The position numbers were made by a program, and so were the translations under genes. From a virus: 64,000 bases of DNA. This document shows positions 14,579-64,000 of the stretch, one piece after another. Where the stretch lies: positions 3,308 to 67,307 of IMG/VR virus record IMGVR_UViG_3300009104_000017; one strand, written 5' to 3'. Within the stretch, counting starts at the first letter, position 1. The number at the start of each line of letters is the position of its first letter. The notes under the pieces are model-generated. The model saw only the letters and a program-made list of their open reading frames with translations. It had not been told where the DNA came from and did not search any database.

Positions 14579-14647
14579 AAAGAGACCCCTATATATAGTT
14601 TGCGGGGTGCACGGCTTAAACGTAGATTAATGCCGCCCGCCCCGCTG

Positions 14648-25099: not shown

Positions 25100-25519
25100 A
25101 TGTGGAAAAAAAGAGACAACAGAAGAAATAACAACCTTGACGATACGTTTAGCGAGTTATTAGATGCTTGGATGGATATGTTAAGCATATCTATGCCGGT
25201 AAGCCAGATGAATGATTGGGTAGAGATGCCCTCTAAAGTTAAAAAGAACAACGCTATGTCATATGAAGATAGAGATAAAGATATAGTCTTTACTATCGAT
25301 ATGCCGGGTGTTCAAAAGAAGGATATAGATATAACAATAGAAGAACATTCTATTAAAGTAACTGCTCAAAACGAAAAGGGTAGAAATTATAACTATACTC
25401 GTAGATTTAAACCAACAGTAGATGAAAATAGTGCTGTTGCCACTTTCACTAATGGTGTATTAGATATCACTGTTAAGAAAGTAGAGGAAAAGAAAGGAAA
25501 ACAGGTGAAAATAAAATGA
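25100..25519 (+). CDS. hsp20: small heat shock protein (Hsp20/alpha-crystallin)
   Basis: DMPGVQKKDIDI and ATFTNGVLDITVKK. Confidence 0.92.
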   Translation: MWKKRDNRRNNNLDDTFSELLDAWMDMLSISMPVSQMNDWVEMPSKVKKNNAMSYEDRDKDIVFTIDMPGVQKKDIDITIEEHSIKVTAQNEKGRNYNYTRRFKPTVDENSAVATFTNGVLDITVKKVEEKKGKQVKIK

Positions 25520-28022: not shown

Positions 28023-29515
28023 TGGAAATACACGATATAGTAAGATATTTACATAATGTAAGAAAGCAAGATGGAAGTGCTAACCCTATCATCGGAGAAG
28101 ATGAATTAGGAGTAGTAGCCACTCTATCTTACTTACTTGAAGATAACAACTTTGTTATAAAAGCATATAGTGGAACAGGTAAGACTGTGATAATGGATGC
28201 AGTATTTGGGCTTTTGCCTGAAGAATACTACCATACCATTGAACACTTATCTGAAACTGCGGTTTGGTATGAGATGGATAAAATCAATCGTGCCAGATTT
28301 ATTGCTATTCCCGAAGCACAGAAGTTACCTGAAGGGGTAATGGAAGTAATTAAGACTTGGGGAGACCAAAGACCTGCCATGAGGAAAAGAACTGATGTGA
28401 CTGTGCAGGATGTTATAGAACAGAAACTCCATCCCAAATACACTTTTATGTGTGTTGCGGTTGAAAACAACAAAGGTTCATCATACTTTGATGCTGAGTT
28501 GGAGAGACGTTGTATGATAGGTCACACAAACCCTACATCTAAGCAAACTGAAGATGTGATAAGGCATAAGTTATTAGATTCTGCTGTGCCAAAATCAGAA
28601 CTAACGACGATGTCCAGTGAAGAGATAGAAGCATTAAAAAAGCATATAGTGGATGCTATAGGTAGAAGAGACGATGAGAATGCTATACTTATCAGAAATC
28701 CATGTGCACCTTTTATCTCTGAGGCCATCCCATCTTTATTTCCTGTTGCTAGAAGTAAGGTGCAATATTTATTGAAAGTTATTAATGCTGTAGGCCGATT
28801 TTATCCAGATGAGATTCTGAAAGTCGAGAAGGATGGTGTTACCTACGGTTTATTAACCCCAAAGCACACTTGGTTAGGACTACGCATCTACCTGAACTCT
28901 TTTGTGAATGAGTGCTTGCATATGCCATCACACGGAACTGACTTACTTAAGTTATTCCCCGATACTCGTATCGATAAATTTGGTCTTGCAGGTAGCGAAA
29001 TTGTCAAAATGACGAGTCGTGAGATTCGGTCTGCCGCCAAGCGTGCAGGGCTACCATTTACTAAGTTAGAACCAGTATTACAAGGTTTACTTATGACTGG
29101 TTTCTTAGAAGAAAAAGAAGAAGATGGTAAAAGATATTATTATAAAAGTCCCCTGTTATCTACTCCTGAAAGTAAGATAAAGTGGGATGAATTAATTACG
29201 TCTACTAAAGACTTTACTAGAGAACATTGGCCTGAAGTGGCTGAAGAGTATATAGAAAGGTATTGTGAAGACGTAAAAGCACAAGACCCATTTACTGGAG
29301 AAGAAGTATTTATTGCTGCTGACGCATCTGATGCAGGTAGTATAGAAGTAGTGGCTGGTGAATTTCCTGATTTCTTTAGATGTAAAGAAGATTGGGAATG
29401 GGTTAAAGATAATGAATGGGATGAAGTCTCATTCTTATTAAATGTTAAAGGTGATTATGGGAAAGAAGAAATCGAAACAATCAAAAGCTGGAAGTTCGGA
29501 GAAAAGAGCAGGTAA
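28022..29515 (+). CDS. AAA+ ATPase, probable replicative helicase (divergent MCM-like)
   Basis: YSGTGKT Walker A, ELERR arginine finger, C-terminal winged-helix-like region. Confidence 0.65.
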   Translation: MEIHDIVRYLHNVRKQDGSANPIIGEDELGVVATLSYLLEDNNFVIKAYSGTGKTVIMDAVFGLLPEEYYHTIEHLSETAVWYEMDKINRARFIAIPEAQKLPEGVMEVIKTWGDQRPAMRKRTDVTVQDVIEQKLHPKYTFMCVAVENNKGSSYFDAELERRCMIGHTNPTSKQTEDVIRHKLLDSAVPKSELTTMSSEEIEALKKHIVDAIGRRDDENAILIRNPCAPFISEAIPSLFPVARSKVQYLLKVINAVGRFYPDEILKVEKDGVTYGLLTPKHTWLGLRIYLNSFVNECLHMPSHGTDLLKLFPDTRIDKFGLAGSEIVKMTSREIRSAAKRAGLPFTKLEPVLQGLLMTGFLEEKEEDGKRYYYKSPLLSTPESKIKWDELITSTKDFTREHWPEVAEEYIERYCEDVKAQDPFTGEEVFIAADASDAGSIEVVAGEFPDFFRCKEDWEWVKDNEWDEVSFLLNVKGDYGKEEIETIKSWKFGEKSR

Positions 29516-29786
29516 ATTACCAAGAGGTGACCAACAATATGCTATTATCAGAGAAATGTCTGGAGGTAGTCGTATGGTAGCTCTTTGTGAAGATGGAAAT
29601 AACAGAATGATTAGGATTCCCGGAAAGCTTAAAAGGAGAATGTGGTGTAGACTTAATGATATAATACTAATAAAGCCTTGGCCTGTACAAGGAGATAGAA
29701 AGGCTGATTTAGTATATCGTTATTTACCAGCAGAAAGAAACTGGTTATACCGTAGGAATATGGTGCCAGAGGATTTAGTGATATAA
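29457..29786 (+). CDS. eif1a: translation initiation factor aIF-1A/eIF-1A
   Basis: GGSRMVALCEDGNNRMIRIPGKLKRRMWCRLNDIILIKPW...KADLVYRY. Confidence 0.93.
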   Translation: MGKKKSKQSKAGSSEKRAGKLPRGDQQYAIIREMSGGSRMVALCEDGNNRMIRIPGKLKRRMWCRLNDIILIKPWPVQGDRKADLVYRYLPAERNWLYRRNMVPEDLVI

Positions 29787-30097
29787 TGGATTTTGAAACA
29801 TATAAAATTTGGACAAGAGAAACAGCAGTTTATCCGAAGGATAAAGAAGAAGAATACCTAATGATAGGTTTAGCCAACGAAGTTGGAGAAGTATTAGGTA
29901 AGTATAAGAAACAAGTTCGCGGAGATGGAGATAAATATAAAGAGATTCGTGGAGAACTTGGTGATGTAATGTGGTATATAGCAAGGTTATTTGATATGTA
30001 TGATATGACTTTAATAGAAGTATTACATGAAAATTATATTAAACTAACTGACCGTAAGGAAAGGGGAGTTTTGAAAGGTGACGGGGATAATAGATAA
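29786..30097 (+). CDS. mazG: MazG-like nucleotide pyrophosphohydrolase
   Basis: GLANEVGEV, ELGDVMWY, KLTDRKERGVLKGDGDNR. Confidence 0.9.
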   Translation: MDFETYKIWTRETAVYPKDKEEEYLMIGLANEVGEVLGKYKKQVRGDGDKYKEIRGELGDVMWYIARLFDMYDMTLIEVLHENYIKLTDRKERGVLKGDGDNR

Positions 30098-30468: not shown

Positions 30469-31812
30469 ATGAAAAAACCCGGATATCCTATGATAGATGC
30501 TATATATGTTATTTATCATAGAGAAGATGTTAGATTAAGGATAGAGAAAGGTCTTAGTGAATTAGATAACGACGTTCCTATTAAATATATAAAGGGTCCT
30601 AATGGTAATGACCCTCATTTTTCTAAATGGTTATTAGATAATGATTATAGACCTATGCCTAATTGGAAAATAGGTTTAGACCCTAATCCAGAAGGATATG
30701 CATTCAGAGATTGGCATAAGAGAGACCACAAGTATGGTGAGATTGCTTGTGCTATAGGACATTTATCTGCTTGGAAACAAGCAAAAGAAGATGGTGCGAA
30801 GTGGCCTTTGTTTTTAGAACAAGATGCTATACCTAATACGATATATACATGGAAAGAAGCATATGCAAAGACAGAATATTATCTAACTCAGTTAAATAAT
30901 AGGTCTATGGACTGGGATATTTTCTATGCTGGACAGGCAGATGCCTGTGAAAGTGACCCTATAGTAAATCCACATTTTAAAATTCAAAAAACTAATTGGA
31001 CATACTGTTTACATGCTTATGTTTTAACCCCTAAAACATTAAGTGAGATACTAAGTCATGATTTTGAGCATCATTTATGTGTGCCTGATGACTATATTCC
31101 AGCCTTCTACTCAGAAGGACATCACGCTATACATCCTAACTTAAGACATCTCGGAGGGAGACTTCGAGCTTATAATATGGAAGTTATGCCCTTTATACAA
31201 GAGCAGGGAACTGAGATAGGCTCTCATAAATTACATAGTGATACAGAGAATAGTCCTTATATAAGTGATAGTTTTTTCATAGAGATAGGAACTTCTGACT
31301 TTGATACATTAGAGCCATTGGCTCAACAAGGCTGGAAGGGGATATTTGTAGAGCCTATTGGAGAACTATTAAACAAATTAGAACGATTTGATGGTTGTTT
31401 CTATGAAGAATCTGCTATATTACACTATAATGGAAAAACTGATATTCAATATTATGACCTAGATTGGGCAGATGACTGGAAAAGAGGTGTAGGTAATACA
31501 TCTGATGTTAATAATTTTAATGCTAATCCACAGTTTAAAGAACACGTTAAGAAAGCTAGAGTAAATGTAATGACTCTTGATGCTCTAATTGATAAGTATG
31601 ACGTTAAACATATAGACTATCTTAAGATAGACATAGAAGGATTAGAGTATAAGATATTAGAGAGTTATTCATGGCGTATATTACCTAAGAAGATAAAATG
31701 CGAACACATACACTGGAATGATAGACCTATGTTGAGAGACCCATATAAAATGTTAGAAGAAAAGGGATATAAGATTACAATGTTACCGGAGGATTTTATA
31801 GCTGAACTATGA
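30469..31812 (+). CDS. GT25 (COLGALT-like) glycosyltransferase fused to FkbM-family methyltransferase
   Basis: GEIACAIGHLSAW, LEQDA, WDIFYAG, YCLHAYVL, PDDY; then IEIG, FVEP, LKIDIEG. Confidence 0.85.
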   Translation: MKKPGYPMIDAIYVIYHREDVRLRIEKGLSELDNDVPIKYIKGPNGNDPHFSKWLLDNDYRPMPNWKIGLDPNPEGYAFRDWHKRDHKYGEIACAIGHLSAWKQAKEDGAKWPLFLEQDAIPNTIYTWKEAYAKTEYYLTQLNNRSMDWDIFYAGQADACESDPIVNPHFKIQKTNWTYCLHAYVLTPKTLSEILSHDFEHHLCVPDDYIPAFYSEGHHAIHPNLRHLGGRLRAYNMEVMPFIQEQGTEIGSHKLHSDTENSPYISDSFFIEIGTSDFDTLEPLAQQGWKGIFVEPIGELLNKLERFDGCFYEESAILHYNGKTDIQYYDLDWADDWKRGVGNTSDVNNFNANPQFKEHVKKARVNVMTLDALIDKYDVKHIDYLKIDIEGLEYKILESYSWRILPKKIKCEHIHWNDRPMLRDPYKMLEEKGYKITMLPEDFIAEL

Positions 31813-32142: not shown

Positions 32143-34362
32143 ATGAAAGTACCTCTAATAGGAATAAGCAGTCCTTACACTAAAAACATGGAGACCGGTG
32201 AACTCCAAACTATCATGTGGCGTAACGGGGTTAAGGAAGTGTATGGTAATCCATACGAGCCTTACGTATACGTTCAGGATAGCGAAACAGGGCATCAATA
32301 CAGCTTAACAGGGCAATCAGGCTCAATTTTGCTGCGTAAAGAGCCCTATAGAGCCGGAGAAGAGCTTCCATCGAGCCTAATATTAGATGGAGGCCGAGAA
32401 AATATAATGGATAGGCTCGTAATAGAGCATCCAGATTACTTTTATGGATTTCCAAATGACCAACCATTGAAAACTCTCTGTTTTGATATAGAGACACATT
32501 CACCTGACGGGTCGTTCCCCTTCGGGGAGAACTACCCCGTCGTGGCAATCGGGATTGTCACGTCAACCGGTGAAAGAGAAGTCTATCTGTGGGATGGAGA
32601 AAATGATAAGCAGGTTTTAATCGATTTTGCCTCGTTTATCAATAAGTATGACCCAGATGTAATCTATGGATATAACTTAGTAGGATATGATATACCTCAA
32701 ATTTTATTTAGAGCATCATATCACGGTATGACCAACTACAAAAAGTTATTGAATAGAGATGGGTCAGACTACGGTTGGCAACCTTCTAAGGACAGTGATG
32801 ACCTTAGAATGAAAGCAGGAGGTAGAGTAATTGTTGATGTATTAAGACATACTCGTCTAGACTACGCATTATCAGGACTCCCTCGTGGACTTAAGCCAGT
32901 CAGTAGACACTTCGGTTTAGAACCAATTGAATTGGACTTTGCTGAGAAGGACTTACTTGACTATAGCTTATCTGAAATACACGACTACGTTCTGTCTGAT
33001 GTAGACTGTACGAAGTTTTTGTTCGACAATTACTTCCCACGTCTTGAATTCACAGCGGAATTCATAGGGGTGCCACTAGAGACATATGTCAACGCCCCTA
33101 GTAGCTATGTTACTAAAATATTACAAGGTAGAGCACTCTTCGAACAGAAGATAGTAACACCTGATATAAATAGAGATAGACACCCTGACATATATAAAGG
33201 ACCGAAGGGTAATTTTCAAGCCGCTTATATTGATTTGTTTGAACCCGGCTTTCATAAAAAGAATATTAAAGTAGATTTTTCTTCTTTTTATCCTTCTATA
33301 GCTATGGCACTAAATTTAGGACCAGATACTACAAGAATAGTAGGTTATGACGAATATAGTGATAAATTAGAGGTTAAAGATAGAAAGCTTTATATACCTG
33401 ATGATAAGATAGGTAAAAGGGTTATAATAGAAATAGACCAAGATAGACGTAGTTGTTTATACTCTATGTGTAAGAAATTTACAGAACTAAGAAAACCTTA
33501 TAAGGAAATGGGAACGCTTGAAGGGGATAGTAAGAGTAATGCATTAAAGATTATGGTGAATACATTCTATGGAGCTAATACAAACCCTTACCTCAACTAC
33601 GGTGATATGTCTGTTGGTATTACAATTACTGCGGTTGCTAGGTTTTTACTTACTACCGGCATACAGCTCATACGAAAGAAATACGGTGATAAGAGCGTGG
33701 TTTATGTTCACACTGATGGTATCAATACTAATTGTGATATTGACGTGGAATGGTTAACAAAAAGATTAAGATTAATACTCGAAGCTACAATACCAAATGT
33801 AGAATCGAAATGGATAGGATTGGATAAAGATGTCTTTAAGGAAGGTCTGTGGATACAAATTGGTAATTATGTACTTCGTAATGAGGACAATAGTATTACC
33901 AAGCATGGTTCAACTTTTAAGGCTTCTACCAGAAGTAAATTTTATAAGTCAACTATTGATAAATTAATTGATGCTAGATTAGATAATAGAGTAACTCAAA
34001 CGTTTATTGATGATTTATATGACTTTGATAATTTACCTATAGAAGACCTTTTACAGAGAAGAACCCTGAATAGAAAGTTCGAGGATTATAAATCAGAAAC
34101 TGATATGATGATACCTCTAGTAAAACAAGGTATAGAAGTAGGAATACAACCTGAAATAAGAACTACATATAACTACTATAAAACTAAAGAAGGATATAAG
34201 ATTGAACAATTAGTGAAATCTAAAACTGATTTGGATGTTAGTTATTATTGGAATATAGTTTCTAGACTTTTAGATAAGTTTGGTTTGAAGCATATGATAA
34301 AGAAGAATCCCCCACTTACTATAATTGATAGGAAACAGAAATCATTGATGGAGTGGGTATGA
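32143..34362 (+). CDS. polB: family B DNA polymerase
   Basis: Exo FDIET, YNLVGYD; pol DFSSFYPS, KIMVNTFYG, YVHTDG. Confidence 0.95.
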   Translation: MKVPLIGISSPYTKNMETGELQTIMWRNGVKEVYGNPYEPYVYVQDSETGHQYSLTGQSGSILLRKEPYRAGEELPSSLILDGGRENIMDRLVIEHPDYFYGFPNDQPLKTLCFDIETHSPDGSFPFGENYPVVAIGIVTSTGEREVYLWDGENDKQVLIDFASFINKYDPDVIYGYNLVGYDIPQILFRASYHGMTNYKKLLNRDGSDYGWQPSKDSDDLRMKAGGRVIVDVLRHTRLDYALSGLPRGLKPVSRHFGLEPIELDFAEKDLLDYSLSEIHDYVLSDVDCTKFLFDNYFPRLEFTAEFIGVPLETYVNAPSSYVTKILQGRALFEQKIVTPDINRDRHPDIYKGPKGNFQAAYIDLFEPGFHKKNIKVDFSSFYPSIAMALNLGPDTTRIVGYDEYSDKLEVKDRKLYIPDDKIGKRVIIEIDQDRRSCLYSMCKKFTELRKPYKEMGTLEGDSKSNALKIMVNTFYGANTNPYLNYGDMSVGITITAVARFLLTTGIQLIRKKYGDKSVVYVHTDGINTNCDIDVEWLTKRLRLILEATIPNVESKWIGLDKDVFKEGLWIQIGNYVLRNEDNSITKHGSTFKASTRSKFYKSTIDKLIDARLDNRVTQTFIDDLYDFDNLPIEDLLQRRTLNRKFEDYKSETDMMIPLVKQGIEVGIQPEIRTTYNYYKTKEGYKIEQLVKSKTDLDVSYYWNIVSRLLDKFGLKHMIKKNPPLTIIDRKQKSLMEWV

Positions 34363-34730
34363 ATAAGATACACTGTAAACAATGTAAAACTTATTTAACT
34401 GCTGATAATTTTTGGAAAGACAAATCACACTCAAACGGATTAGAAAATAGATGTAAAGGTTGTAATCAGGATAGAATGAGACGTAGAAGATATGCTAAGA
34501 AAATGAAAATAATAGAATATCTAGGTGGTGAATGTGTAAAATGTGGAGCCACATTAGAAGATATACATTATTCTGCTTTTGACTGTAATCATAAAGACCC
34601 ATCACAGAAAAGTTTTACTATTAGTAGTGCAGGTTTTGATTTTGATAAAATAAAGAATGAATTAGACAAGTGTGAACTAGTATGTTCTAACTGTCATAGG
34701 AAAATAACATATGAGAACTTTCGTAATTAA
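34359..34730 (+). CDS. HNH endonuclease
   Basis: Zn finger then CVKCG...FDCNH...KCELVCSNCHR. Confidence 0.8.
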   Translation: MNKIHCKQCKTYLTADNFWKDKSHSNGLENRCKGCNQDRMRRRRYAKKMKIIEYLGGECVKCGATLEDIHYSAFDCNHKDPSQKSFTISSAGFDFDKIKNELDKCELVCSNCHRKITYENFRN

Positions 34731-35538
34731 TATACCTACAAGAGATGACAGACGCCAAATGATGGACATACAACTGCGAGAAACTGGTTTTGAAATACCT
34801 GAAGAAGGTAAAAAGAATGAAGAAGGATTTGAAGCTCCTGATTTGCGGGTAGAGTGGACTACGCACATGAAGTATAATATACTTGGTAGTGATATAACTG
34901 ATGAGTGGTTAGAAGAAAATGGTTTTGGATTATTTAATTGGCGTATTGAACCAGAGGTGGCTGCATTACTAGACGATGATGTGGATGATTGTTGGTGGTC
35001 TAGAGATTTAACAAAGGGAGAAATAGGATGTGCTCTAAGTCATTGGGGTATATGGAAAGAGTGTGAAAACTACGATAAACCTATAATGATATTGGAAGAT
35101 GATGCTAAATTTGATAGTAATATGGAACTTAAAAGAGATATAGCTATTGATACTTTAGAATTGATGGGTAAAGATTGGGATATACTATACTTAGGAAGAT
35201 TTCCTGTAAAACCACATCTGGAAGAAAGATTAACTGAGACTATAGTTATGCCTAAATTTTCTTATTGCACATATGCATATTGTTTGTCTCCGAAAGGTAT
35301 AAAAAGATTGCTGGCTTATAACCTTGAAAAGAGTATAATACCTGTTGATGAATTTATGTCTTCAACATATATCGTACATCCCCGAATGGACGTAAGTCTT
35401 AAATACCCCCCTTCATTAGTAGTTTATGCTATGGACCCCGTTATTGTTGAACAAAGACCTAAACATGAAGTTGGAAGTGATACTGGATTACCACCAGAAT
35501 TTAGACCAGTGTGGGACCCAAATGGATGGAAAAAATGA
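34711..35538 (+). CDS. GT25 glycosyltransferase similar to procollagen galactosyltransferase C-terminal domain
   Basis: RDLTKGEIGCALSHWGIWKE, ILEDD, WDILYLGR, SYCTYAYCLS..G...LL, PVDEF. Confidence 0.88.
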   Translation: MRTFVINIPTRDDRRQMMDIQLRETGFEIPEEGKKNEEGFEAPDLRVEWTTHMKYNILGSDITDEWLEENGFGLFNWRIEPEVAALLDDDVDDCWWSRDLTKGEIGCALSHWGIWKECENYDKPIMILEDDAKFDSNMELKRDIAIDTLELMGKDWDILYLGRFPVKPHLEERLTETIVMPKFSYCTYAYCLSPKGIKRLLAYNLEKSIIPVDEFMSSTYIVHPRMDVSLKYPPSLVVYAMDPVIVEQRPKHEVGSDTGLPPEFRPVWDPNGWKK

Positions 35539-36146
35539 TAGAAAAATTATATGCGTATAAGATAGACCCTAAAGGTTGGGCTAAGAAGATGATTGCACTA
35601 GGAACTAGAGATAATCAGTGGGATTTAGTAGTAGAGAACATTGGACCAGAAATATATAGCTTTCCTTTATTTACTAAAGAAGCGTGTGATATGATTATTC
35701 AACATGCTGAGAATACAGGTAAATGGACTAAAGCTAGACATGAATTTTATCCTACTACTGATATACTTTTAGAAGATATAGGTTTAAAAGAGATGTATGA
35801 TTATGTATTACATAATTATGCTCATCCTGTAGCTAGAAGATTATGGAAATTAGAAGGTACTAAATGGAATAAGGAATTAACTTCTGAAGATTTTATAGCC
35901 AGATATAAGGCTGAAGAACAAGCAGCATTAGACATACACCATGACCATGCTGATTATACCTTTACATTAGGTCTTAATACTGAATATGAAGGAGGGGGTA
36001 CATGGTTCCCTCGTCAACAAGTATTAGCTAATCCTAAATCAGGATATGTTTCTTTATTCCCAAGTGTTACACATAGACATGGTGGAAGACCTACTACTAA
36101 AGGAACAAGATACATAATAGTATCTTTTGTAAAGAAAGGAGTATAA
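35535..36146 (+). CDS. procollagen-lysine 5-dioxygenase-like (PLOD lysyl hydroxylase domain)
   Basis: IYSFPLFT..ACD, PTTDI, FIARYKAEEQAALDIHHD, YEGGG, THRHGGRPTTKGTRYIIVSFV. Confidence 0.85.
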   Translation: MIEKLYAYKIDPKGWAKKMIALGTRDNQWDLVVENIGPEIYSFPLFTKEACDMIIQHAENTGKWTKARHEFYPTTDILLEDIGLKEMYDYVLHNYAHPVARRLWKLEGTKWNKELTSEDFIARYKAEEQAALDIHHDHADYTFTLGLNTEYEGGGTWFPRQQVLANPKSGYVSLFPSVTHRHGGRPTTKGTRYIIVSFVKKGV

Positions 36147-36707
36147 ATGGAAAAATCAATAATTGTAATAGATGGTTTTTATAACGAACCAGAAAGAATA
36201 AGAAATGAAGCTCTTTCTATGGATTTTAATATAACAGGTAATTATCCCGGTAATAGAACTGTACCATTACCAGAAGGAGACGTAAGAGAATTTTTAGAAA
36301 GAATTATTGGTACAAAAATAGATGAGATGAGCTGGAATATAGGAGAATATACTGGAACTTATCAATTTGTGCCAGAAGGAAGTAATACATGGGTACATGC
36401 AGACAGACATACTGATTGGTCTTGTGTTGTATATTTACATCCAAACCCGAAAGAAAACTCAGGCACCTCCTTTTATAAACATAAAGAAACAGGTTCTGTA
36501 GAATGGGATGATGTCTTTGCAGGTGAAGTTGTAGAAAATGATGGAGATGACTGGGATAAATGGATAAGAACTGATACAGTATCTAATAGATTTAATAGAG
36601 CTGTTTTATTTAGAGGAAAAATGTGGCATGCAGCTGATGAATATTTTGGAACAACAAAAGAAGATGCAAGGTTATTTCAGACCTTCTTCTTCAATGAGGT
36701 GAAATAA
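36147..36707 (+). CDS. 2OG-Fe(II) oxygenase (DUF6445-like)
   Basis: WVHAD, VVYL.P, GTSFY, NRFNRAVLF...WH...RLFQTFFF. Confidence 0.8.
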   Translation: MEKSIIVIDGFYNEPERIRNEALSMDFNITGNYPGNRTVPLPEGDVREFLERIIGTKIDEMSWNIGEYTGTYQFVPEGSNTWVHADRHTDWSCVVYLHPNPKENSGTSFYKHKETGSVEWDDVFAGEVVENDGDDWDKWIRTDTVSNRFNRAVLFRGKMWHAADEYFGTTKEDARLFQTFFFNEVK

Positions 36708-37321
36708 TGGAAAGAAAAAATGTATATGTAGATATAAGAGATGAAGAAAATAGTGAAAGTACTATCAATATGGCAGACTATTACTTCTTTAGAAACGCTT
36801 TCAATGATGAAGAAATTGAACGTATAAAGAAAATAGCAATGAAATACCCTGCTCTAAATGCAGGAACAGGACAAGAATATAGTGCATCAGAAGATGATAG
36901 TGTTAGGAAGAGCACTATAAGATGGATGTATGATGAAGTGGGTGAATTAGATTGGGTTTATAAACGATTGTTTGAAATGGCTAATGAAGCTAATAATCAT
37001 TTATGGGATTTTAATTTATCTCATGCTGGAGAAGTATTGCAATATACTGAATACCCACCAGATGGAGGTCATTACGACTGGCATATAGATTGTGGACACC
37101 ATATGCAGGCCCAGAGGAAAATAAGTATTACAGTGCAATTAAATGATGACTATGATGGTGGCGAACTACAATTATGGCGTGGACAGAGTCCTGCAACTGC
37201 ACATAAAGAAAAGGGAACAGTTGTTATATTCCCTTCTTATATGTTACATAGAGTTGCGCCTGTAACAAAAGGTACTAGAAATTCACTTGTATTATGGATA
37301 GGAGGAGACCATTACCGATGA
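36707..37321 (+). CDS. 2OG-Fe(II) oxygenase, prolyl-4-hydroxylase/PKHD-like
   Basis: YDWHID, RKISITVQL, YDGGEL, FPSYMLHRVAPVTKGTRNSLV. Confidence 0.88.
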   Translation: MERKNVYVDIRDEENSESTINMADYYFFRNAFNDEEIERIKKIAMKYPALNAGTGQEYSASEDDSVRKSTIRWMYDEVGELDWVYKRLFEMANEANNHLWDFNLSHAGEVLQYTEYPPDGGHYDWHIDCGHHMQAQRKISITVQLNDDYDGGELQLWRGQSPATAHKEKGTVVIFPSYMLHRVAPVTKGTRNSLVLWIGGDHYR

Positions 37322-37869
37322 TAATAATAGATAATTTTTTAGAAGATGAAGTTATGCTTCAGAATATATCAAACAAAAACGGTGATTTCTGGAAAATAGG
37401 TTATCACTGGTGGAGTGGATGGTGGAATAATTCACCTAATACTTTAAGACAAAAATTAGTTGAGAAAATATGGACAGACCATAGAGTTCCTATATTGGAT
37501 GAAGTTATGGGTTTTGAACATTGGGTAGGTATTCTTAATAAAGAAAATACTATAGGTAATGAAAAGGGATATGCTTTAAACCACCATTTTGATAAAGATG
37601 AAGGAGGTGGTGACTTGAAACCTATGATTGGTACTGTATATTACCCTCCTATGGGAGAACCACAGTGTGAAGGTGGATATCTAAAGGTTTATGCTGGTAA
37701 CAGTCGTGATGCTCCTTATGAGCTTATAGCTCCTGTTCCTAATAGGTTAGTTGTATTTGATGCTACACAATTACATGCAGTAACAGAAATTCCAAAAGGT
37801 AATAGATATGCAATAGCTATTAACTTATGGAGTGAAAAACCAACTACAGAGATGGTGGAGGAAATATAA
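37318..37869 (+). CDS. 2OG-Fe(II) oxygenase, prolyl-hydroxylase-like
   Basis: HFDKDE, EGGYL, NRLVVFD...HAVT...RYAIAINLW. Confidence 0.82.
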   Translation: MIIIDNFLEDEVMLQNISNKNGDFWKIGYHWWSGWWNNSPNTLRQKLVEKIWTDHRVPILDEVMGFEHWVGILNKENTIGNEKGYALNHHFDKDEGGGDLKPMIGTVYYPPMGEPQCEGGYLKVYAGNSRDAPYELIAPVPNRLVVFDATQLHAVTEIPKGNRYAIAINLWSEKPTTEMVEEI

Positions 37870-38672
37870 TGCATTACAAACAAAAATTAAGTAATTATTA
37901 TTCACCGTTTATTCATGCTAACGGCCCTTCTAAATTTGAGGAAAGTTGGGATAGAACAGTTAATAGATATTTTGAGGAACCACCAGTTAAAGGTACTGTT
38001 CCAGATGATTTAACTGTAGTAACTTGGTCTATACCTACTGAAAGAACATTGCTACAGAACTGTTTCAGACATTATGGTATAGAGGATAGGCTTGTAGTTA
38101 TACCTCTAAGTGAACCAGTAGATTTCTTAGACAAAATTAGGCAAATGAATAAATATCTAGGTAAGATTAAAACTAAGTATGTTATGGCCTTAGATGCTAC
38201 AGATGTTATGCCCTTTGGTTTTGATGCCTGCACCCTTGCTTTACAATCTTTTAAAAATAAAAATGTGAAAGCTATCTTTGGTGCTGAGCTATCACAATGG
38301 CCAAATCCTAAAACAATGAAAGGTATAGCTATGCCTACTGGAGATGCACCATTTGAAATGGGTTCATGGATAAGTGATTTAAGAAAGGTTAGAGAATTAG
38401 AAGAAGTATATGAATGGTTAGGTTCTCCTTTCAAACATTTGTGTAGTGGTACATGGATAGGAGAAAGAGAGTATATGATAGATTTCTATAGTGAATGTAT
38501 GAGTAAAATACCTGAAGGACATTATGATGAAGGTTTATTTGGTGGAGACCAAGGATTTATAACTTTAGTAGCTGGGAGAAGATTTCCAGATGTTGTGTTA
38601 GATAGTCAGAGTCAAATATTTTTAAGTTTGGCATTTACTGATGAAAGTAATGTAGAATTAGCTATAGATTGA
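37869..38672 (+). CDS. PLOD-type (LH3 N-terminal) glycosyltransferase domain, permuted
   Basis: KIR...DATDV, IFGAE...WP, LCSGTWIG, DQ, LDSQSQIF; HANGPSK at N-terminus. Confidence 0.75.
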   Translation: MHYKQKLSNYYSPFIHANGPSKFEESWDRTVNRYFEEPPVKGTVPDDLTVVTWSIPTERTLLQNCFRHYGIEDRLVVIPLSEPVDFLDKIRQMNKYLGKIKTKYVMALDATDVMPFGFDACTLALQSFKNKNVKAIFGAELSQWPNPKTMKGIAMPTGDAPFEMGSWISDLRKVRELEEVYEWLGSPFKHLCSGTWIGEREYMIDFYSECMSKIPEGHYDEGLFGGDQGFITLVAGRRFPDVVLDSQSQIFLSLAFTDESNVELAID

Positions 38673-38734: not shown

Positions 38735-38941
38735 ATGGAGAATAATATGGAAGAAAATGATATGAAACAAGTTATTTCTTTTTTCTCAAACGAGGAAGTT
38801 AAAGTTGTTTGGAGAGAAGAAGATAAAACAAAAGTAGGAAGAGGTAAAATAACACATGATGATGATAATTTTGTGTATTTGGCCGGAGAGAAAGGAAAAG
38901 TAATAGTCAATAAGAAAGACGTTATTGCAATAAAACAATGA
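38735..38941 (+). CDS. Sm/LSm/Hfq-like small protein
   Basis: VKVVW...GRGKITHDDDNFVYL...VIVNKKDVIAI beta-strand pattern; own promoter. Confidence 0.5.
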   Translation: MENNMEENDMKQVISFFSNEEVKVVWREEDKTKVGRGKITHDDDNFVYLAGEKGKVIVNKKDVIAIKQ

Positions 38942-39567
38942 ATTACAGCGATGATTTTAAATTTGTCTGGTGGTCTACAGGAGGAGCAGCCACTAGAAGC
39001 GTATGTGGAGTATTACAACAATCTTTTGGTTTAAACCCTAAAAACCCTGATGGAGCATCAAGTCATGATGTTGGTATTCCTGAGCACTGTTCTGATTATA
39101 AAATTATATGTAATGTTAGAAACCCATATTCTTGGTTCGTTTCTGCCTTTACAGATGAAGATATGTATAAACTTAAGTCAGAAGGGGAGCGTTTAAACTT
39201 TAGTGAATGTGTAAGAACCCCAGAATGGTTTAGAAAAATAGCTTTAAATGTTCATATATCTGAAAGATGGGAAGAATTAGGCATAAGAAACCCTGATTAT
39301 TATATTAAAATGGAAGATATACGTGGTAGTATAGAGAATATTCCTATATTACAACCTACACCTGACATCGATTGGTCTTTACATGAAGAGAATCAATATA
39401 AGCATAAAGATGACGATAGTGGAACTTATAGAAGTTATGATGAAAAAGGAGTACGTAATGATTGGAAGAAATATTATACTCAAGAATTAGCGGATATAAT
39501 ATATAATCATCCAGAAATAAAAAAAATGTTTGACCTAACGGGTTATGACAGGGATAGTTGGAAATGA
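38938..39567 (+). CDS. sulfotransferase family protein
   Basis: VRNPYSWFVSAF, IKMED, WKKYYTQELADIIY. Confidence 0.75.
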   Translation: MNYSDDFKFVWWSTGGAATRSVCGVLQQSFGLNPKNPDGASSHDVGIPEHCSDYKIICNVRNPYSWFVSAFTDEDMYKLKSEGERLNFSECVRTPEWFRKIALNVHISERWEELGIRNPDYYIKMEDIRGSIENIPILQPTPDIDWSLHEENQYKHKDDDSGTYRSYDEKGVRNDWKKYYTQELADIIYNHPEIKKMFDLTGYDRDSWK

Positions 39568-42427: not shown

Positions 42428-44293
42428 ATGTTTAAAAACGAAGTAGCAGAATTTATTTATAAAAGAACGTATTCACGTTGGCTAGAAGAAGAAAATAGGC
42501 GGGAAGATTGGCCTGAAACAATAGAGAGGTTTTTAGAATTTGTAATTTCAGAAAGACCTGATATACCAGAGAAAACTGTAAACAAAATTAGAAAGTATAT
42601 GATGGAATTCGCAGTAATGCCATCTATGAGATTTTTATGGGCAGCAGGACCAGCAGCTAAAGCTGATAATACAACTATATACAACTGCTCATTTGCAAAG
42701 ATAAACTCCATTGAAGCTTTCGCAGAGTGTCTTTATATCCTTATGTGTGGCACTGGATTCGGATTTTCAGTAGAACAGGAAGAAATTAATAAACTTCCTG
42801 AAATACCAGAAATACGTTCAGGTCGAGCACTTAAGGAAATAGTTATTGATGATTCAAAAACTGGGTGGGCTGATTCAGTAAAGACACTCATGCAAAGTTT
42901 GTATGATGGACAGAATATCTATTTCGATTACTCAAAGATTAGACCAGAAGGTGCTAGACTCATGACAATGGGTGGAAGAGCGTCTGGTCCACAACCTTTG
43001 GTAAAACTACATGATTTCATCCGTGAAACCATGCATAATGCTCAAGGACGTCAACTCACGTCTCTCGAAGCTCATGATATATGTAATCAGATTGCTGAGA
43101 TTGTTGTTGTTGGCGGGGTACGTCGCAGCTCTCAAATATCCTTGTCGGACCTCCATGATACAGACATGCGACACGCAAAGGAGTGGCCTTATCCCATCAA
43201 ACGTGCTATGGCTAACAATAGTGCTATTTATAGGGAAAAGCCCTCCGCTGCTGAATTCTTAAAAGAATGGGCTTCATTAGCTCTATCAGGCACTGGTGAA
43301 AGAGGTATATTTAATCTAGAAGCTGCACAAAGCAAAGCTCCATCAAGAAGATATGCTCCACTTATACAGGGGACAAATCCATGTGGAGAGATAATGCTTA
43401 GAGATATGGAATTTTGTAATCTCAGTGAAGTAGTAATAAGAGCTGATGATGATTTAGATAGTTTATTAGACAAAGTAGAGACTGCTACATGGTTAGGAGT
43501 TATACAGAGCTCATTTACACACTTTCCATACCTACGAGAAACGTGGAAAAAGAACTGCGACAAAGAATGCCTTTTAGGCGTTAGTTTGACCGGTCAGATG
43601 GATAACCCTTCCCTATTGAGCTCGGAGGCTTTAAACGCCCTTAAAAGCCGTGTTATACGCATATCTCGTAAAGCATCGGGAATACTAGGAACCAAGATGC
43701 CTACTGCTACCACTTGTGTGAAGCCTAGTGGCACTGTTTCTCAGTTAGTAGATTCTGCCAGTGGAGTTCATCCAAGATATTCTCAATATTATATTCGTAG
43801 ATATAGGATAGCAGCAAGAGACCCTTTATTTGCTATGATGAGAGATATGGGTGTGCCTTGTAATCCTGAGAATGGACAAACAGAAGAAGACGCATCTACT
43901 TGGGTATTAGAATTCCCTGTTAAATCACCTGATGGGTGTATTACTCGTAAAGATGTAACTGCGCTAGACCAGTTAAGTCATTATAAGAATTTACAACATA
44001 ATTGGTGTGAACATAATGCTAGTATGACTGTATATGTCAGAGATGATGAATGGTTTGAAGTAGGGAATTGGGTTTACAAAAATTGGGATATTATAAATGG
44101 AGTCTCTTTCTTACCTTATGATGGTGGACACTACGAATTGGCCCCATATGAGGAAATTGACGTCCATTCTTACGAAAGGCTTATAAAGGCCCTCCCCCGA
44201 ATAGTATATAGCGAACTTGCTAAATACGAAACTGAGGACAATACTCAGGGAAAACAAGAGCTAGCTTGCTCAGGAGATAAATGTGACATCTGA
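42428..44293 (+). CDS. nrdJ: class II (adenosylcobalamin-dependent) ribonucleotide reductase
   Basis: YNCS, VVVGGVRRS, GTNPCGEI, CNLSE, TCVKPSGTVSQL, C-terminal CxxxxC. Confidence 0.95.
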   Translation: MFKNEVAEFIYKRTYSRWLEEENRREDWPETIERFLEFVISERPDIPEKTVNKIRKYMMEFAVMPSMRFLWAAGPAAKADNTTIYNCSFAKINSIEAFAECLYILMCGTGFGFSVEQEEINKLPEIPEIRSGRALKEIVIDDSKTGWADSVKTLMQSLYDGQNIYFDYSKIRPEGARLMTMGGRASGPQPLVKLHDFIRETMHNAQGRQLTSLEAHDICNQIAEIVVVGGVRRSSQISLSDLHDTDMRHAKEWPYPIKRAMANNSAIYREKPSAAEFLKEWASLALSGTGERGIFNLEAAQSKAPSRRYAPLIQGTNPCGEIMLRDMEFCNLSEVVIRADDDLDSLLDKVETATWLGVIQSSFTHFPYLRETWKKNCDKECLLGVSLTGQMDNPSLLSSEALNALKSRVIRISRKASGILGTKMPTATTCVKPSGTVSQLVDSASGVHPRYSQYYIRRYRIAARDPLFAMMRDMGVPCNPENGQTEEDASTWVLEFPVKSPDGCITRKDVTALDQLSHYKNLQHNWCEHNASMTVYVRDDEWFEVGNWVYKNWDIINGVSFLPYDGGHYELAPYEEIDVHSYERLIKALPRIVYSELAKYETEDNTQGKQELACSGDKCDI

Positions 44294-44495: not shown

Positions 44496-45526
44496 ATATA
44501 ACTTTTCATAACAGGAACGTCTTTATTTAATGTAAAAGAAGACATAACTCCTGATTTATCGTTCCAACTAACCTTTCGACTTTTAATGCGGTGGTTTTTC
44601 CTTAATTCAGGTTCTTCTACATTAAGTCTAATAACGTTACCTGTAGATAAATAGTGTCCTTTAGATACTGTCATAGAAACCTCTTGAACTTCTTCTTCAT
44701 TTATAATTGAATCTAAAATAGCTTCTTGTAAAGCAGAATCACTATCTTTAAATTCCCCCTTTAAAGTATGACCTATAGGTCCATATGGCATATTGCCCTT
44801 TTTATAGGTTATTCTCTTATTATTCTTATCTTCTAAATTATAAAATTGAGGAGGTGGTCTTCTTTTTGATTTTAAAGAAACTATACCATCATTCAATGAA
44901 AAAGCTACTGGATTTGCTTCTTCAATATCTCTCTCTCTATTAATAACTATATTAGATTGGGTAGCTGACTCTACCATTTTTATACTATATCTATATGGTT
45001 TTTTAGTACTATCTCTATTTGTGGGTAAATTACCAGTAATAAATTTATAAGGGTCTGCCGTAGTTCTTATTTTTTTTAGTAATACTGGTGGGTTAGGCTC
45101 GTTCAACATATCTAGGCCAATAATTGTATCATTAGTATTTATATGTTTAGAAACATAATGGTGTATAAATTGAGATATAGTAAAACCATCAAAATTATTT
45201 AATTTAGTTAAAACTACAGGTGCAGCTTCTTTACCTGTTAAAAAAGTCCTAGGGTCCATAGCTGTGAAACTGAAATTTCTATCAGTGGGATTAATCTGTC
45301 TAACATATCCTCTAAATAATGGTACTGAATCCTGTGCTCCATAATTTAAATAAAATTCTACTTTTTGATTATACCATTTGTATTCATCATATTCTGGGTC
45401 TGTTAGATTCACTTTTAATGAATTTATAGTAGAGCCTCCATTTTCAATATAGTTAACAGAACTAACGTTTACTATCTCCAGTCCCCCCACAAATAATTGA
45501 GGATTACAATATTGACTCAGACTCAC
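44489..45526 (-). CDS. tail tip/baseplate hub-like protein
   Basis: Position at distal end of tail operon; LFRGYV and V.L....L pattern. Confidence 0.55.
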   Translation of the reverse strand: MSLSQYCNPQLFVGGLEIVNVSSVNYIENGGSTINSLKVNLTDPEYDEYKWYNQKVEFYLNYGAQDSVPLFRGYVRQINPTDRNFSFTAMDPRTFLTGKEAAPVVLTKLNNFDGFTISQFIHHYVSKHINTNDTIIGLDMLNEPNPPVLLKKIRTTADPYKFITGNLPTNRDSTKKPYRYSIKMVESATQSNIVINRERDIEEANPVAFSLNDGIVSLKSKRRPPPQFYNLEDKNNKRITYKKGNMPYGPIGHTLKGEFKDSDSALQEAILDSIINEEEVQEVSMTVSKGHYLSTGNVIRLNVEEPELRKNHRIKSRKVSWNDKSGVMSSFTLNKDVPVMKSYIQ

Positions 45527-48147
45527 AAGTGGCCCCCAAAGCCAACAAATCTAGGTTTATCTATTTCTCCACCAAGTGATACCAGTCCTTCAGATACAAA
45601 CCCTCCTGAAGAATTAAACATTGCTACAGAAGATACTTGTAGGGATAAACCATATTTAGGTAGCATACCTCCTGTTGGATGGTCTTCACTCATTTCTATA
45701 ATAGTTCCATAGAATCTTGTATAATCTCCATTTTTATGGGTAACATCTAAAAATACAGGAGTAGCTTCTTTTTGATATCTATAAACAGTATCACGAGTTG
45801 AATTAACATCATTTTGTAAATCAACACCTCCAAATTTAACAACTCCTCCAGATGCTCCTATCTTTCTTATTTCTGCCATACCTAATCTATTTTCAATTAC
45901 TTGATATTTTCCCTTTCTGTTAAAAGATATCCCTTGTGCTAATACTAAATTATTTAAAGACAGACAGGTTGGGTCTATCACTTCAATATATTGCTGGTGT
46001 GAATTATCAGCTACTAATACTTTAGGTACCTGAACCTTTGCCAGTGCAGTATCAGCACCAGCCCCACTCGAAGCGTCTATTCCAATAGCTATACAAATAG
46101 CATAAGAATCAACGTCCCATGGATTTGCTAAATTATTAAGAAAGTTGTCAGTACCCAAATTAGAATTCATTGTAGTTTTCTTACATTTAACCCAATCATT
46201 TGGTGGGTCAAAAGATAACATACCCGACCTACATAATGAAGTACCTCTTTTTCTATTAAAAGTAGTATTATCCATGAATTTTAACGGTTTGAATCTAATA
46301 TAGTTAGTAGTATCAGTGAAACCTTTCTCTACACTCGGATAAAATAACTGTAATTCAATAGCTGGCCAATTACCATCTGTTGCACCTTGTATACTTATAT
46401 TGTTAAATATAGCAGATATATCATCATGTAAGGTTTTCATATATATCTTATCAAATTTCCTATCTTTAGCTATTAACAGATATGTCTTATAATTACCAGT
46501 TGTTATACTAGTACCAGATAGTGAGCTTCCTCTTAGTGTTCCATTGGCTGCCGTATCACTGTTGATTAAATTACTACAGTCTGTCCATGTAGGTGTACCG
46601 GTGTCTCCATCATAGGTTCTATACATTATACTGAAGGACTTTAAATCAGAAGGATTCCTTAATCTATAACAGTTTGATGAGTCAGATTCTATAGTACCAT
46701 CGTCATCTGTATCTCCATTCCAATATGTCTTCCCTTCAAAATGTTCTAAAAAAGAAAGTTGATTTTTATCTACAATATCATTATCTGCTCCTGCAAAAGC
46801 ATCATCAGCTTGAGTAGATGCAGAAGAATCTCTCACCTGACATTCTATAAGTCTCCCTTCTGGTAAAAACCTATTATCATCGTCTAACATATTAAATGTA
46901 AAAGAGTGTGAATATGATTCTCTTCTCACTCCATCACTAGTAGGACCAAATGCAGTGTTTTGTGTCATATAGGGAGTATTACCATAACTATCACTACTAG
47001 TTGTTTGTCTAACGTCCATTCCTCCCGTCCATACTCTATCTCTATCTAAATCAAACATAAAAGCATCTGTTGTAGCTAATGTAACATTTGATGCTCTTGT
47101 TCTACTCTCTGTAGCATCAATAGTAGCATAAAAACCTAAAGTATAATCTTCTAATATTGGATTACCTAATGATACATAAGCTATAGATACATTTTCACCT
47201 GCTCCTTGAGCATCATGTAATATATGTATTCTTTCTCCCGAAGCCAACTTATCGCTAGCAGTAGCAGATGTTGTTTCCCTATTATCTATCAACTCTACCC
47301 TTAATATTCTTCTACATGCATTTATAGTTTCTGAATGTTTTTTCTTAACTTCTCTAATTAATGCATTATCACCAGCATCAGCACTACCTGTGGGAGCTCC
47401 GCTATCTAAATAAAGAATTCTTAAATACACATCAGTTCTATCTGTGTTTTCTGAATGAATTAGAACTTGTGGATAAGTTGCATCATCAATAGATACGTCT
47501 CCTAAAAATGTATTATCAATTCCAGAAAAAATTTGTTTTCTATCTGTTTTTAACACACAAACAGGTGGTTTATTAGCTGGGCATAAAATTGGTATCCTAG
47601 GTTTAAGCTTCTTTTCCATTGTAACCATACTAAAATTATTATTACCTGCATCATATAAATTACTATCAACTCTATGAGAATCGTCTAATGCTTTAAAATC
47701 ATTATCTTCGTGAGCAGGAGTATACCATTTGGAATAAAACCCTTCTATACTTTTTGTTCTTATAAGTGGGAAGTGAGGTCCGTGTTTACTAAAAATATGA
47801 GAAGTTACTGCAAAGGCATTGGGATTTTCTAATACTATCTTACTAGTATTACTTTTCTCTGGAGTATTGTCTTCCCCGTCGTCCCAATCTATCTCAAATT
47901 CTTTTACTAAACCATTAGCTTCTATTCTAAACCAATATTCTTCAAATATAAAAAAATGATAATATCCATCAGCATGAGATGAATGAGCTGTTGCTACAGT
48001 AGCACTTGCATTAACGTCTGCCGTATCATGTGACAAGCCTCCTAAAGTGGCACTCATTACTCCTAATGGGTTAGTGTTTGCTAAGGCATCTGCTTCAGTC
48101 ATATAAACCTTCAATACATAATCAGTTGGTGATACATTTACTCCCAT
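45523..48147 (-). CDS. minor tail protein (PKD-like N-terminal motif)
   Basis: FEIDWDDGE motif; tail operon. Confidence 0.6.
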   Translation of the reverse strand: MGVNVSPTDYVLKVYMTEADALANTNPLGVMSATLGGLSHDTADVNASATVATAHSSHADGYYHFFIFEEYWFRIEANGLVKEFEIDWDDGEDNTPEKSNTSKIVLENPNAFAVTSHIFSKHGPHFPLIRTKSIEGFYSKWYTPAHEDNDFKALDDSHRVDSNLYDAGNNNFSMVTMEKKLKPRIPILCPANKPPVCVLKTDRKQIFSGIDNTFLGDVSIDDATYPQVLIHSENTDRTDVYLRILYLDSGAPTGSADAGDNALIREVKKKHSETINACRRILRVELIDNRETTSATASDKLASGERIHILHDAQGAGENVSIAYVSLGNPILEDYTLGFYATIDATESRTRASNVTLATTDAFMFDLDRDRVWTGGMDVRQTTSSDSYGNTPYMTQNTAFGPTSDGVRRESYSHSFTFNMLDDDNRFLPEGRLIECQVRDSSASTQADDAFAGADNDIVDKNQLSFLEHFEGKTYWNGDTDDDGTIESDSSNCYRLRNPSDLKSFSIMYRTYDGDTGTPTWTDCSNLINSDTAANGTLRGSSLSGTSITTGNYKTYLLIAKDRKFDKIYMKTLHDDISAIFNNISIQGATDGNWPAIELQLFYPSVEKGFTDTTNYIRFKPLKFMDNTTFNRKRGTSLCRSGMLSFDPPNDWVKCKKTTMNSNLGTDNFLNNLANPWDVDSYAICIAIGIDASSGAGADTALAKVQVPKVLVADNSHQQYIEVIDPTCLSLNNLVLAQGISFNRKGKYQVIENRLGMAEIRKIGASGGVVKFGGVDLQNDVNSTRDTVYRYQKEATPVFLDVTHKNGDYTRFYGTIIEMSEDHPTGGMLPKYGLSLQVSSVAMFNSSGGFVSEGLVSLGGEIDKPRFVGFGGHL

Positions 48148-48153
48148 ATTTAT

Positions 48154-63028: not shown

Positions 63029-64000
63029 TCATGAATAACTCTGAATTACTCCACCTGTTACTGCCGCTGTATATGAACCTATAGCCATAACATCACCAGT
63101 CATAACATTAGCAACCCATGCAGTTGCTACTTCGAAATCGTCATCTGTTCCACTGCTGCTTCCGCCAGAACCAGCTTCTCCTTTCTGTCCTTTAGAACCT
63201 TGAGAACCTGTAGAACCTGTAGGTCCTGCACTTCCTTGAGGTCCAGTAGAACCAGTTGCTCCTTTCTGTCCTTTAGAACCTTGTGGTCCTGTAGAACCAG
63301 TGTCACCTTTGTCACCTTTACTTCCTTGTGGTCCAGTTGGTCCAGTTGGTCCTGTACTTCCTGTAGAACCAACTTCTCCTTTTTGTCCTTTAGAACCTCC
63401 GCCTCCACCGCCTCCGGCTTCACCTTTTTGTCCTTTCTGTCCAACAGGGTTGAAAGATATTGTAACTGTATCATCTTCTGAGAATGGTACTGATGTACCA
63501 GTAGATGCAGTGTGTGATACTGCTATAGCGTATTCAGTAAGTCCACCAGAACTTCCAGTTAACCATGCTGATGCACTTGCTCGTAAAATAACAAAATCAG
63601 ATGCATCTCCATCTTTAACAAAACGTATATCAACTTCTTGGTTACCAGAACCTAAGTCGTCTAACCAATCGTCTATACTGTTAGAAGAATCATCTGTATG
63701 ATATTCATTAACATATACTGTAGTTATACTTGCATTAGTACCACTATTGAATTGGAACTGTCCTTTGGCTGTTTCTGTAGCACCAGTTCCGGGTTTAAAT
63801 ATATATTGTGGTCCAGCAGGCGTACCTGTTGGTCCTTTTGGTCCTGCACTTCCAGTTGGTCCAGTTGGTCCTGCACTTCCTTGAGGTCCTGCGCTTCCTT
63901 GAGGTCCTGTACTTCCAGTAGGTCCTTGAGGTCCTGTAGAACCAGTAGCTCCTTTAGAACCTTGAGGTCCAGTGCTTCCTTGAGGTCCTGTACTTCCTTG
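63029..64000 (-). CDS. collagen-like fibre protein (5' end outside window)
   Basis: Open frame with two Gly-X-Y tracts ([12 protein letters not shown]..., GQKGQKGE...GSKGDKGD) around a globular domain; missed by ORF track because the start is outside. Confidence 0.92.

Follow-up and report, generated by a model that had tools for sequence, protein, structure and literature searches.

A candidate collagen-lysine modification operon and its presumed fibre substrate in a marine tailed virus that probably infects archaea

To our knowledge, animals and mimivirus are the only systems in which hydroxylation and glycosylation of collagen lysines have been measured. The locus described here raises the question of what a small marine tailed virus would do with a compact set of genes resembling the enzymes of that pathway. 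The virus is IMG/VR record IMGVR_UViG_3300009104_000017 (67,307 bases, classed by IMG/VR as linear and 96% complete), of which record bases 3308-67307 were analysed; this stretch of 64,000 nucleotides is called the window, and positions are those of the window unless stated otherwise. It has been detected solely in marine or seawater metagenome sequencing runs, and no RNA runs are listed as containing it. A sequence-only reading had proposed that six coupled genes form an animal-type collagen lysine hydroxylation and glycosylation operon in an archaeal tailed virus. The answer favoured here, with a probability of roughly 0.6, is similar: the operon would be a collagen-lysine modification toolkit for the virus's own fibre, in a marine tailed virus probably infecting archaea.

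The six open reading frames (ORF1-ORF6; Table 1) lie on the + strand at the coordinates first given, 34711 to 38672, and the sequence motifs originally quoted for them were all found in the translations. They are tightly packed, with successive spacings of -13, 0, -1, -28 and -1 bases when ORF2 is counted from the ATG at 35526. Upstream and without a gap lie the family B DNA polymerase (PolB) gene (32143-34362) and then a small zinc-ribbon/HNH-like ORF, while a 62-base spacer separates the end of the operon from the next downstream gene.

ORF2 encodes a stand-alone lysyl hydroxylase (LH) domain of the PLOD type. A PDB sequence search matched it to human LH3 (E 7.4e-29; query residues 20-208 on chain residues 514-714) and, with a lower score, to mimivirus L230 (4.7e-22). 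With numbering from the ATG at 35526, residues H138, D140, H185 and R195 show little or no variation among 32 homologues and align with LH3 motifs; from the LH3 literature, we take them to be the Fe(II) triad (HxD...H) and the Arg (in GTRY) that binds 2-oxoglutarate (2OG). The ESM Atlas version of the protein begins at residue 6, and in four related viruses the protein is 74-77% identical. Its closest named cellular homologues belong to Thiotrichaceae and other Gammaproteobacteria (55-61% identity), some of them on chromosomes of 1-4 Mb.

ORF1 matched Pfam GT25 (PF01755) with an E-value of 7.4e-21 and 75.4 bits, against a cut-off of 24. Its best solved relative in the PDB sequence search is human COLGALT1 (1.8e-22, 83 bits), whereas a bacterial GT25 (8xlz) reaches 22.8 bits (3.9e-4) and mimivirus R655 reaches 20.1 bits. 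The EDD motif at residues 129-131 is aligned with that of COLGALT1, and homologues with 59-62% identity occupy the same place in the four related viruses. As judged from scores rather than from a tree, ORF1 appears closer to COLGALT than to GT25 enzymes of the lipopolysaccharide type. Both identities proposed by the sequence-only reading, COLGALT1-like for ORF1 and a free-standing PLOD hydroxylase domain for ORF2, are therefore retained.

The third member of the core set, ORF6, required the use of its family. As a single sequence it had no PDB sequence match, and an exhaustive search recovered 173 representatives of its family at E-values up to 0.001, from which 60 were picked for roughly full length and aligned with ORF6. 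Of these 61 aligned members, 58 match the Pfam glycosyltransferase (GT) domain GT_PLOD at E-values up to 0.01, and the homologue in the diverged relative L102 passes the GT_PLOD cut-off with 40.6 bits. Against the PDB, the family profile found mimivirus R699 (2.5e-24) and the GT domain of LH3 (4.3e-22). The AlphaFold2 (AF2) model of ORF6, with a predicted local distance difference test (pLDDT) score of 95.9, gave R699 and LH3 structures (including 6wfv) at Foldseek ranks 1-11 with probability 1.00, and retaining GT6 galactosyltransferases ranked below them. The proposal that the operon contains a PLOD/LH3-type GT domain is thus upheld by both the family profile and Foldseek, although ORF6 alone remains below threshold.

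Within the ORF6 family, H16 and D112 are invariant and D109 is nearly so. In ORF6, His16 precedes the DxxD motif (D109/D112), whereas in LH3, R699 and gp162 of Synechococcus phage S-PRM1 the His follows DxxD and an acidic DDQ stretch. This order suggests that the LH3/R699 GT domain is circularly permuted in ORF6 and its family, with the His-bearing strand at the N-terminus. Two short N-terminal sub-alignments of ORF6 are weak by themselves (independent E-values of 8.9 and 17).

ORF3, ORF4 and ORF5 are further 2OG-Fe(II) oxygenases. ORF3 matched Pfam DUF6445 (5.6e-13) and, more weakly, 2OG-FeII_Oxy_3, and contains HAD at residue 84 and a distal His161. Neither its single sequence nor a profile matched any PDB sequence; its AF2 model (pLDDT 81.9) is a generic double-stranded beta-helix, with OGFOD1, HygX, amino-acid hydroxylases and PHD2 as the best folds. 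ORF4 matched 2OG-FeII_Oxy_3 (3.1e-18) and, in the PDB, PiuC (3.6e-6) and a prolyl 4-hydroxylase (9.3e-6), and so resembles the PiuC/PKHD group; most of the other viral LH loci carry a homologue of it close to LH. ORF5 also matched 2OG-FeII_Oxy_3 (8.6e-10) and contains HFD at residue 98, His161 and an Arg in GNRY, but a search of PDB sequences gave no informative relative, and its tblastn matches were restricted to the 4 loci of this lineage among the 80 loci examined. With Pfam families matched and an HxD motif plus distal His in each, the claim of three additional oxygenases held, and all three look catalytically intact. Enzyme assignment in the operon is solid for ORF1, ORF2 and ORF6 and generic for ORF3-ORF5.

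The proposed substrate is a collagen-like fibre. The ORF at the end of the window contains 52 Gly-X-Y triplets, and each of its 12 Lys occupies the Y position. An N-terminal piece with 17 triplets lies outside the window on the same strand, from record base 1 to about base 311; the assembly lacks the part in between. We infer that the virus has one fibre gene and that the assembly broke inside the repeats. The collagen fibre rich in X-Lys-Gly that was noted at first is therefore real, although the annotated ORF is only the C-terminal piece of its gene. All four related viruses with the operon have one whole collagen gene each, of 1762-2310 amino acids and 406-482 triplets, and Pfam Collagen matched two of these fibres with E-values of 2.1e-157 and 3.3e-178. 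The fibres of the relatives share a conserved 50-residue N-terminal domain, their repeats are interrupted by globular inserts of 110-125 residues, and their C-terminal ends vary. A collagen helix rises about 0.29 nm per residue, and the helical part of the fibre would be roughly 350-400 nm long. The fibre gene is flanked by the capsid genes on one side and by the head-tail connector gene on the other.

The lysines of these fibres are confined to one position of the triplet. In the four relatives, 368 Lys are at Y and none at X, and in the two fragments from this virus the counts are 20 and 0, while Pro is found 607 times at X and 27 times at Y. This pattern fits the X-Lys-Gly substrate motif of LH enzymes, and assignment of the fibre as the probable substrate is well supported by context. 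The fibre tip is variable: in two relatives (fibre genes L018:2348-7876 and L019:1728-8660), weak Pfam matches mark a Hint/intein-like domain some 210 residues long at the fibre end, and the fibres of L020, L021 and this virus end differently. Some versions of the fibre may be self-cleaving.

An association between LH and collagen genes is also seen in other viruses. A search of IMG/VR with a profile built from LH homologues gave 373 stretches, the best 80 loci of which were examined; 76 of these lie outside the lineage of this virus. When collagen was defined as a run of at least 10 Gly-X-Y triplets in the flanking DNA covered, 62 of the 76 loci carried such runs. Clustering of the LH proteins at 80% identity yielded 14 clusters, with collagen within 10 kb in eight; the lineage studied here carries its collagen elsewhere in the genome. 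In the collagens of the cluster representatives, 5 Lys are at X and 988 at Y. Co-occurrence of LH with collagen genes in other genomes, which had been named as a check on the proposal, was accordingly found.

The diverged member L102 indicates which parts of the operon persist. Its PolB is 76% and its ribonucleotide reductase (RNR) 86% identical to those of this virus, and its LH only 44%, which suggests cassette exchange. At L102:1393-4163, genes for GT25, LH and GT_PLOD are adjacent in the same slot after PolB and are followed by a different oxygenase (2OG-FeII_Oxy_5). Since the trio is retained with another oxygenase, it appears to be the conserved core, and the extra oxygenases accessories.

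Comparison with known systems places the operon among collagen-modifying enzymes of animals, giant viruses and cyanophages. In the names, titles and abstracts of the solved structures, LH3, COLGALT1, L230 and R699 are tied to collagen lysine modification, and R699 is named as the collagen galactosylhydroxylysyl glucosyltransferase of Acanthamoeba polyphaga mimivirus. All three catalytic domain types of human LH3 (PLOD3) and COLGALT1 are represented in the virus, with conserved Fe/2OG residues and DxxD and His positions, and the motif presumed to be modified, X-Lys-Gly within a collagen helix, is the same. The viral domains differ from the human ones in being separate small proteins that lack the LH3 accessory domain and the second COLGALT1 domain, in the apparent permutation of the GT and in the presence of three extra oxygenases. 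The viral reaction would also run in the cytoplasm of a prokaryotic host, whereas the human one takes place in the endoplasmic reticulum. Mimivirus likewise encodes collagen and its own lysine-modifying enzymes, as predicted here from genes, and its L230 reportedly has both LH and glucosyltransferase activity (Luther and colleagues, 2011). However, mimivirus is a giant virus of amoebae with L230 as a fusion, while the present virus is an HK97-type tailed virus of 67 kb whose genes are unfused and whose host is probably an archaeon.

Closer in kind is Synechococcus phage S-PRM1, which encodes a collagen-like protein with Lys at Y (gp158), two 2OG oxygenases (gp160 and gp161) and, in gp162, GT25, GT_PLOD and LH domains. 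Unlike in the present virus, these domains are fused in one 614-residue protein with the canonical GT order, encoded directly beside the collagen gene of a 144-kb T4-like phage of a bacterium, and the proteins of the two viruses are only 26-28% identical. Phages S-CAM9 and S-8S53/55/56 carry a set like gp158-gp162, annotated as hypothetical or as 2OG-Fe(II) oxygenase. The label "animal-type" was thus too narrow, given LH homologues in Thiotrichaceae chromosomes and in the 373 IMG/VR stretches, and the fused trio in cultured cyanophages. The module is not confined to this lineage, and cultured cyanophages have it in fused form; what is new is that the trio is unfused, that its GT is apparently permuted and that three further oxygenases accompany it, in a virus lineage that is itself new and likely archaeal.

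Pairing of dioxygenases with collagen-like substrates in prokaryotes has been considered before. Iyer, Abhiman, de Souza and Aravind (2010; PMC2938197) predict that bacterial collagen-like proteins are hydroxylated and sulfated, by other dioxygenase families, and describe prokaryotic operons that pair dioxygenases with collagen- or tail-fibre-like substrates; unlike here, their prediction involves neither the trio of PLOD LH, GT25 and LH3-GT nor archaeal viruses. Soon after the present operon, an ORF of 209 residues (38938-39567, + strand) has a weak, sub-threshold match to Sulfotransfer_1 (E 0.013), which recalls the hydroxylation-then-sulfation idea of that paper. Among the titles and abstract openings retrieved, none describes a lysyl hydroxylase system in a phage or archaeal virus. 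The word "collagen" is absent from the main text of a paper on Poseidoniales viruses, and a survey of archaeal tailed viruses (arTV) mentions neither collagen nor oxygenases.

From these assignments we infer a substrate, a pair of sugars and an order of steps. ORF2, using Fe(II), 2-oxoglutarate and O2, would hydroxylate the Y-position Lys of Gly-X-Lys in the fibre inside the infected cell. ORF1 would add the first hexose to the resulting hydroxylysine and ORF6 the second, and ORF3-ORF5 would probably act as hydroxylases on further fibre residues, possibly prolines at X.

The virus itself has an HK97-type head-tail module comprising terminase, portal, prohead protease, capsid and tape measure genes, and no close relatives were found among 50,697 phage records. 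Distant relatives of its large terminase subunit (TerL) include those of both bacterial and archaeal viruses; TerL homologues were found in 624 marine proteins, and a search of genome contigs returned one distant match in Spirochaetaceae (22% identity). Among the best 80 of 272 TerL relatives, all but three contigs are of 4-26 kb, and the three of 49-67 kb were already among the LH relatives.

Evidence on the host comes mainly from an archaeal-type translation initiation factor, aIF-1A (29442-29786, + strand; probable start 5 codons in, 109 residues). It matched Pfam at 2.9e-14 and NCBIfam NF003084 at 98.4 bits against a cut-off of 91, and in the PDB it matched archaeal aIF1A (6.7e-26) and eukaryotic eIF1A (1.8e-13), with bacterial IF-1 not among the matches. 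The protein is 86-87% identical in the two related loci that cover this region, and the best 120 of its 319 homologues are on contigs of viral size; outside viruses, its nearest cluster in the ESM Atlas is archaeal. Neither aIF-1A nor the capsid protein had a match in the GenBank phage collection, and a literature search found no publication on initiation factor 1A in a marine archaeal virus. In addition, the motif CYTTATATA occurs in 38 copies compared with 4.7 expected, and seven copies end 21-41 bases before a start codon, an arrangement more in line with an archaeal TATA box and short leaders than with a sigma-70 promoter. Pfam and NCBIfam scans of the virus proteins found no peptidoglycan hydrolase, and further NCBIfam scans found no other archaeal hallmarks. 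An archaeal host is thus probable on the strength of aIF-1A, the TATA-like motif and the lack of a visible lysin. Of the earlier designation as an archaeal tailed virus, the HK97-type tailed nature stands and the archaeal host is probable from aIF-1A.

Many CYTTATATA copies form inverted pairs 10-20 bases apart, at 8900-14700 and scattered elsewhere, among short ORFs on both strands (e.g., 9812/9832, 10378/10398, 11028/11046, 12244/12264, 13731/13749 and 38680/38704). Such pairs might act as TATA-type promoters in both directions or represent a repeated element with a regulatory role.

Several observations weigh against modification of the virus's own fibre in an archaeal host, and some of them favour other explanations. 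The chemistry of the whole scheme is predicted from homology. ORF6 alone scored 22.3 bits against GT_PLOD, under the cut-off of 27, and the TM-scores of its fold matches are modest (0.43-0.51), as would fit a changed topology. Lys at Y is not diagnostic by itself, because all residues of the fibre are strongly position-specific, with Pro and Asp at X and Thr and Gln at Y equally so. The co-occurrence figures and the Lys counts at X and Y are raw counts from viruses that carry LH. Five of the 14 LH clusters have no collagen in the DNA covered, four of them with less than 3.4 kb upstream and one (L175) with 10 kb, and the operon itself is placed in the replication module right after PolB, with some 24 kb separating it from the collagen gene portion in the window. 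Such distance from the fibre gene and such clusters would be expected if the enzymes acted on other targets, such as virion proteins, envelope or S-layer proteins of the host, or small molecules, the collagen gene being unrelated. Three of the six enzymes lack a specific characterised relative, and the Poseidoniales virus paper counts 2OG oxygenases, prolyl 4-hydroxylase, CobT and glycosyltransferases among auxiliary genes, with the oxygenases and prolyl hydroxylase treated as metabolic ones. This explanation is nevertheless distinctly unlikely, since the best-characterised relatives (LH3/L230, COLGALT1 and LH3-GT/R699) all act on collagen lysines according to their structure titles and abstracts, collagen lies beside LH in most loci of other viruses, and Lys is confined to Y. 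The position directly downstream of the DNA polymerase might also suggest that the operon hypermodifies viral DNA, its bases being hydroxylated and then glycosylated as they are in phage systems of the T-even and TET/JBP types, and some matching PHROG families are labelled "DNA endonuclease" or "DNA endonuclease V". Those labels, however, sit on 2OG-oxygenase families and lack Pfam support, the significant matches of the operon are to protein-modifying enzymes, and a check for DNA-modifying oxygenases, which had been named as grounds for abandoning the proposal, found no TET/JBP, AlkB or hydroxymethylase family matching any of the six ORFs; DNA hypermodification is scarcely credible.

A further alternative retains the same self-modification chemistry and places it in a bacterial host, making this one more marine phage with the module and aIF-1A a stray acquisition. 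The Gammaproteobacterial LH homologues, Thiotrichaceae among them, the same domains in Synechococcus phages, a RecU-like resolvase and the mixed bacterial and archaeal viral relatives of TerL are all in keeping with it. Shine-Dalgarno-like motifs precede 25 of 70 genes, compared with a 6% background, a feature that does not discriminate between hosts. No tRNA was found in the virus, and no host link through CRISPR, tRNA or provirus was obtained. A bacterial host nonetheless sits poorly with a full-length aIF-1A that scores above the NCBIfam cut-off, is conserved in the lineage and has an archaeal nearest non-viral cluster, with the missing lysin and the resemblance of CYTTATATA to an archaeal TATA box, and with a capsid protein and aIF-1A unmatched in the phage collection. 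We regard it as improbable, if less so than a change of target, and the preferred reading remains modification of the virus's own collagen fibre in a probable archaeal host.

Table 1. Genes of the candidate modification operon, the proposed substrate and a possible additional member (positions in the window; aa, amino acids).
Feature	Positions	Strand	Length (aa)	Basis
ORF1: GT25, COLGALT1-like; candidate hydroxylysine galactosyl-/glucosyltransferase	34711..35538	+	275	Pfam, PDB
ORF2: stand-alone PLOD LH domain	35511..36146	+	206 (from probable ATG 35526)	PDB, conservation
ORF3: 2OG-Fe(II) oxygenase, DUF6445	36147..36707	+	186	Pfam, AF2 fold
ORF4: prolyl-4-hydroxylase/PiuC-like 2OG-Fe(II) oxygenase	36707..37321	+	204	Pfam, PDB
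ORF5: 2OG-Fe(II) oxygenase	37294..37869	+	191	Pfam
ORF6: LH3/R699-type GT-A glycosyltransferase; candidate second-sugar (glucosyl) transferase	37869..38672	+	267	Profile, fold
Collagen-like fibre gene, C-terminal part; proposed substrate	63029..64000	-		Gly-X-Y repeats
Possible extra member: second GT25 domain fused to FkbM-type methyltransferase	30469..31812	+	447	Pfam

Other genes in the window touch on the operon or its surroundings. The GT25-FkbM fusion (Table 1) matched Pfam FkbM at 4e-14 and GT25 weakly, and its residues 43-216 match GT25 genes found in other loci. In L140, L143, L150 and L164, a homologue (37%) of the methyltransferase half lies immediately downstream of LH, and the fusion may belong to the system. 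The small ORF wedged between PolB and the GT25 gene (34353-34730, + strand) is Cys-rich with a weak HNH/zinc-ribbon signal; it has no counterpart at the same site in L007 and L102, where GT25 directly adjoins PolB, and it may be a homing-endonuclease-like insertion. A CobS-like AAA ATPase and CobT-like VWA protein, Hsp20, MazG and a B12-dependent class II RNR (16667-20055 on the + strand, 25100-25519, 29786-30097 and 42428-44293) form a set that is typical of marine viruses; the best NCBIfam model for Hsp20, below its cut-off, is "archaeal Hsp20". Downstream of the tape measure gene, two tail-region proteins of 874 and 1900 residues (45523-53856, - strand) had no match in Pfam, PHROG or NCBIfam.

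A small tailed virus that probably infects archaea has the full set of enzymes together with a plausible substrate of giant size. Related sets are present in hundreds of contigs from marine phages, cultured cyanophages included, and the idea is therefore directly testable. The compact stand-alone enzymes are of potential use for producing modified recombinant collagen. If the proposal is true, it would provide an actual function for the many "2OG-Fe(II) oxygenase auxiliary metabolic genes" of marine viruses. A wider picture, tentative and with the odds rather against it, would be that of a marine-archaeal tailed virus with a collagen fibre of about 0.35-0.4 micrometres, its Y-position lysines hydroxylated and glycosylated by unfused, ancestral-style enzymes, with a circular permutant among them; the pathway would then occur in viruses of all three domains, and PLOD and COLGALT of animals would have arisen late, by fusion of stand-alone genes that had circulated in prokaryotic viruses. 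The finding may bear on the origin of the animal collagen-lysine pathway.

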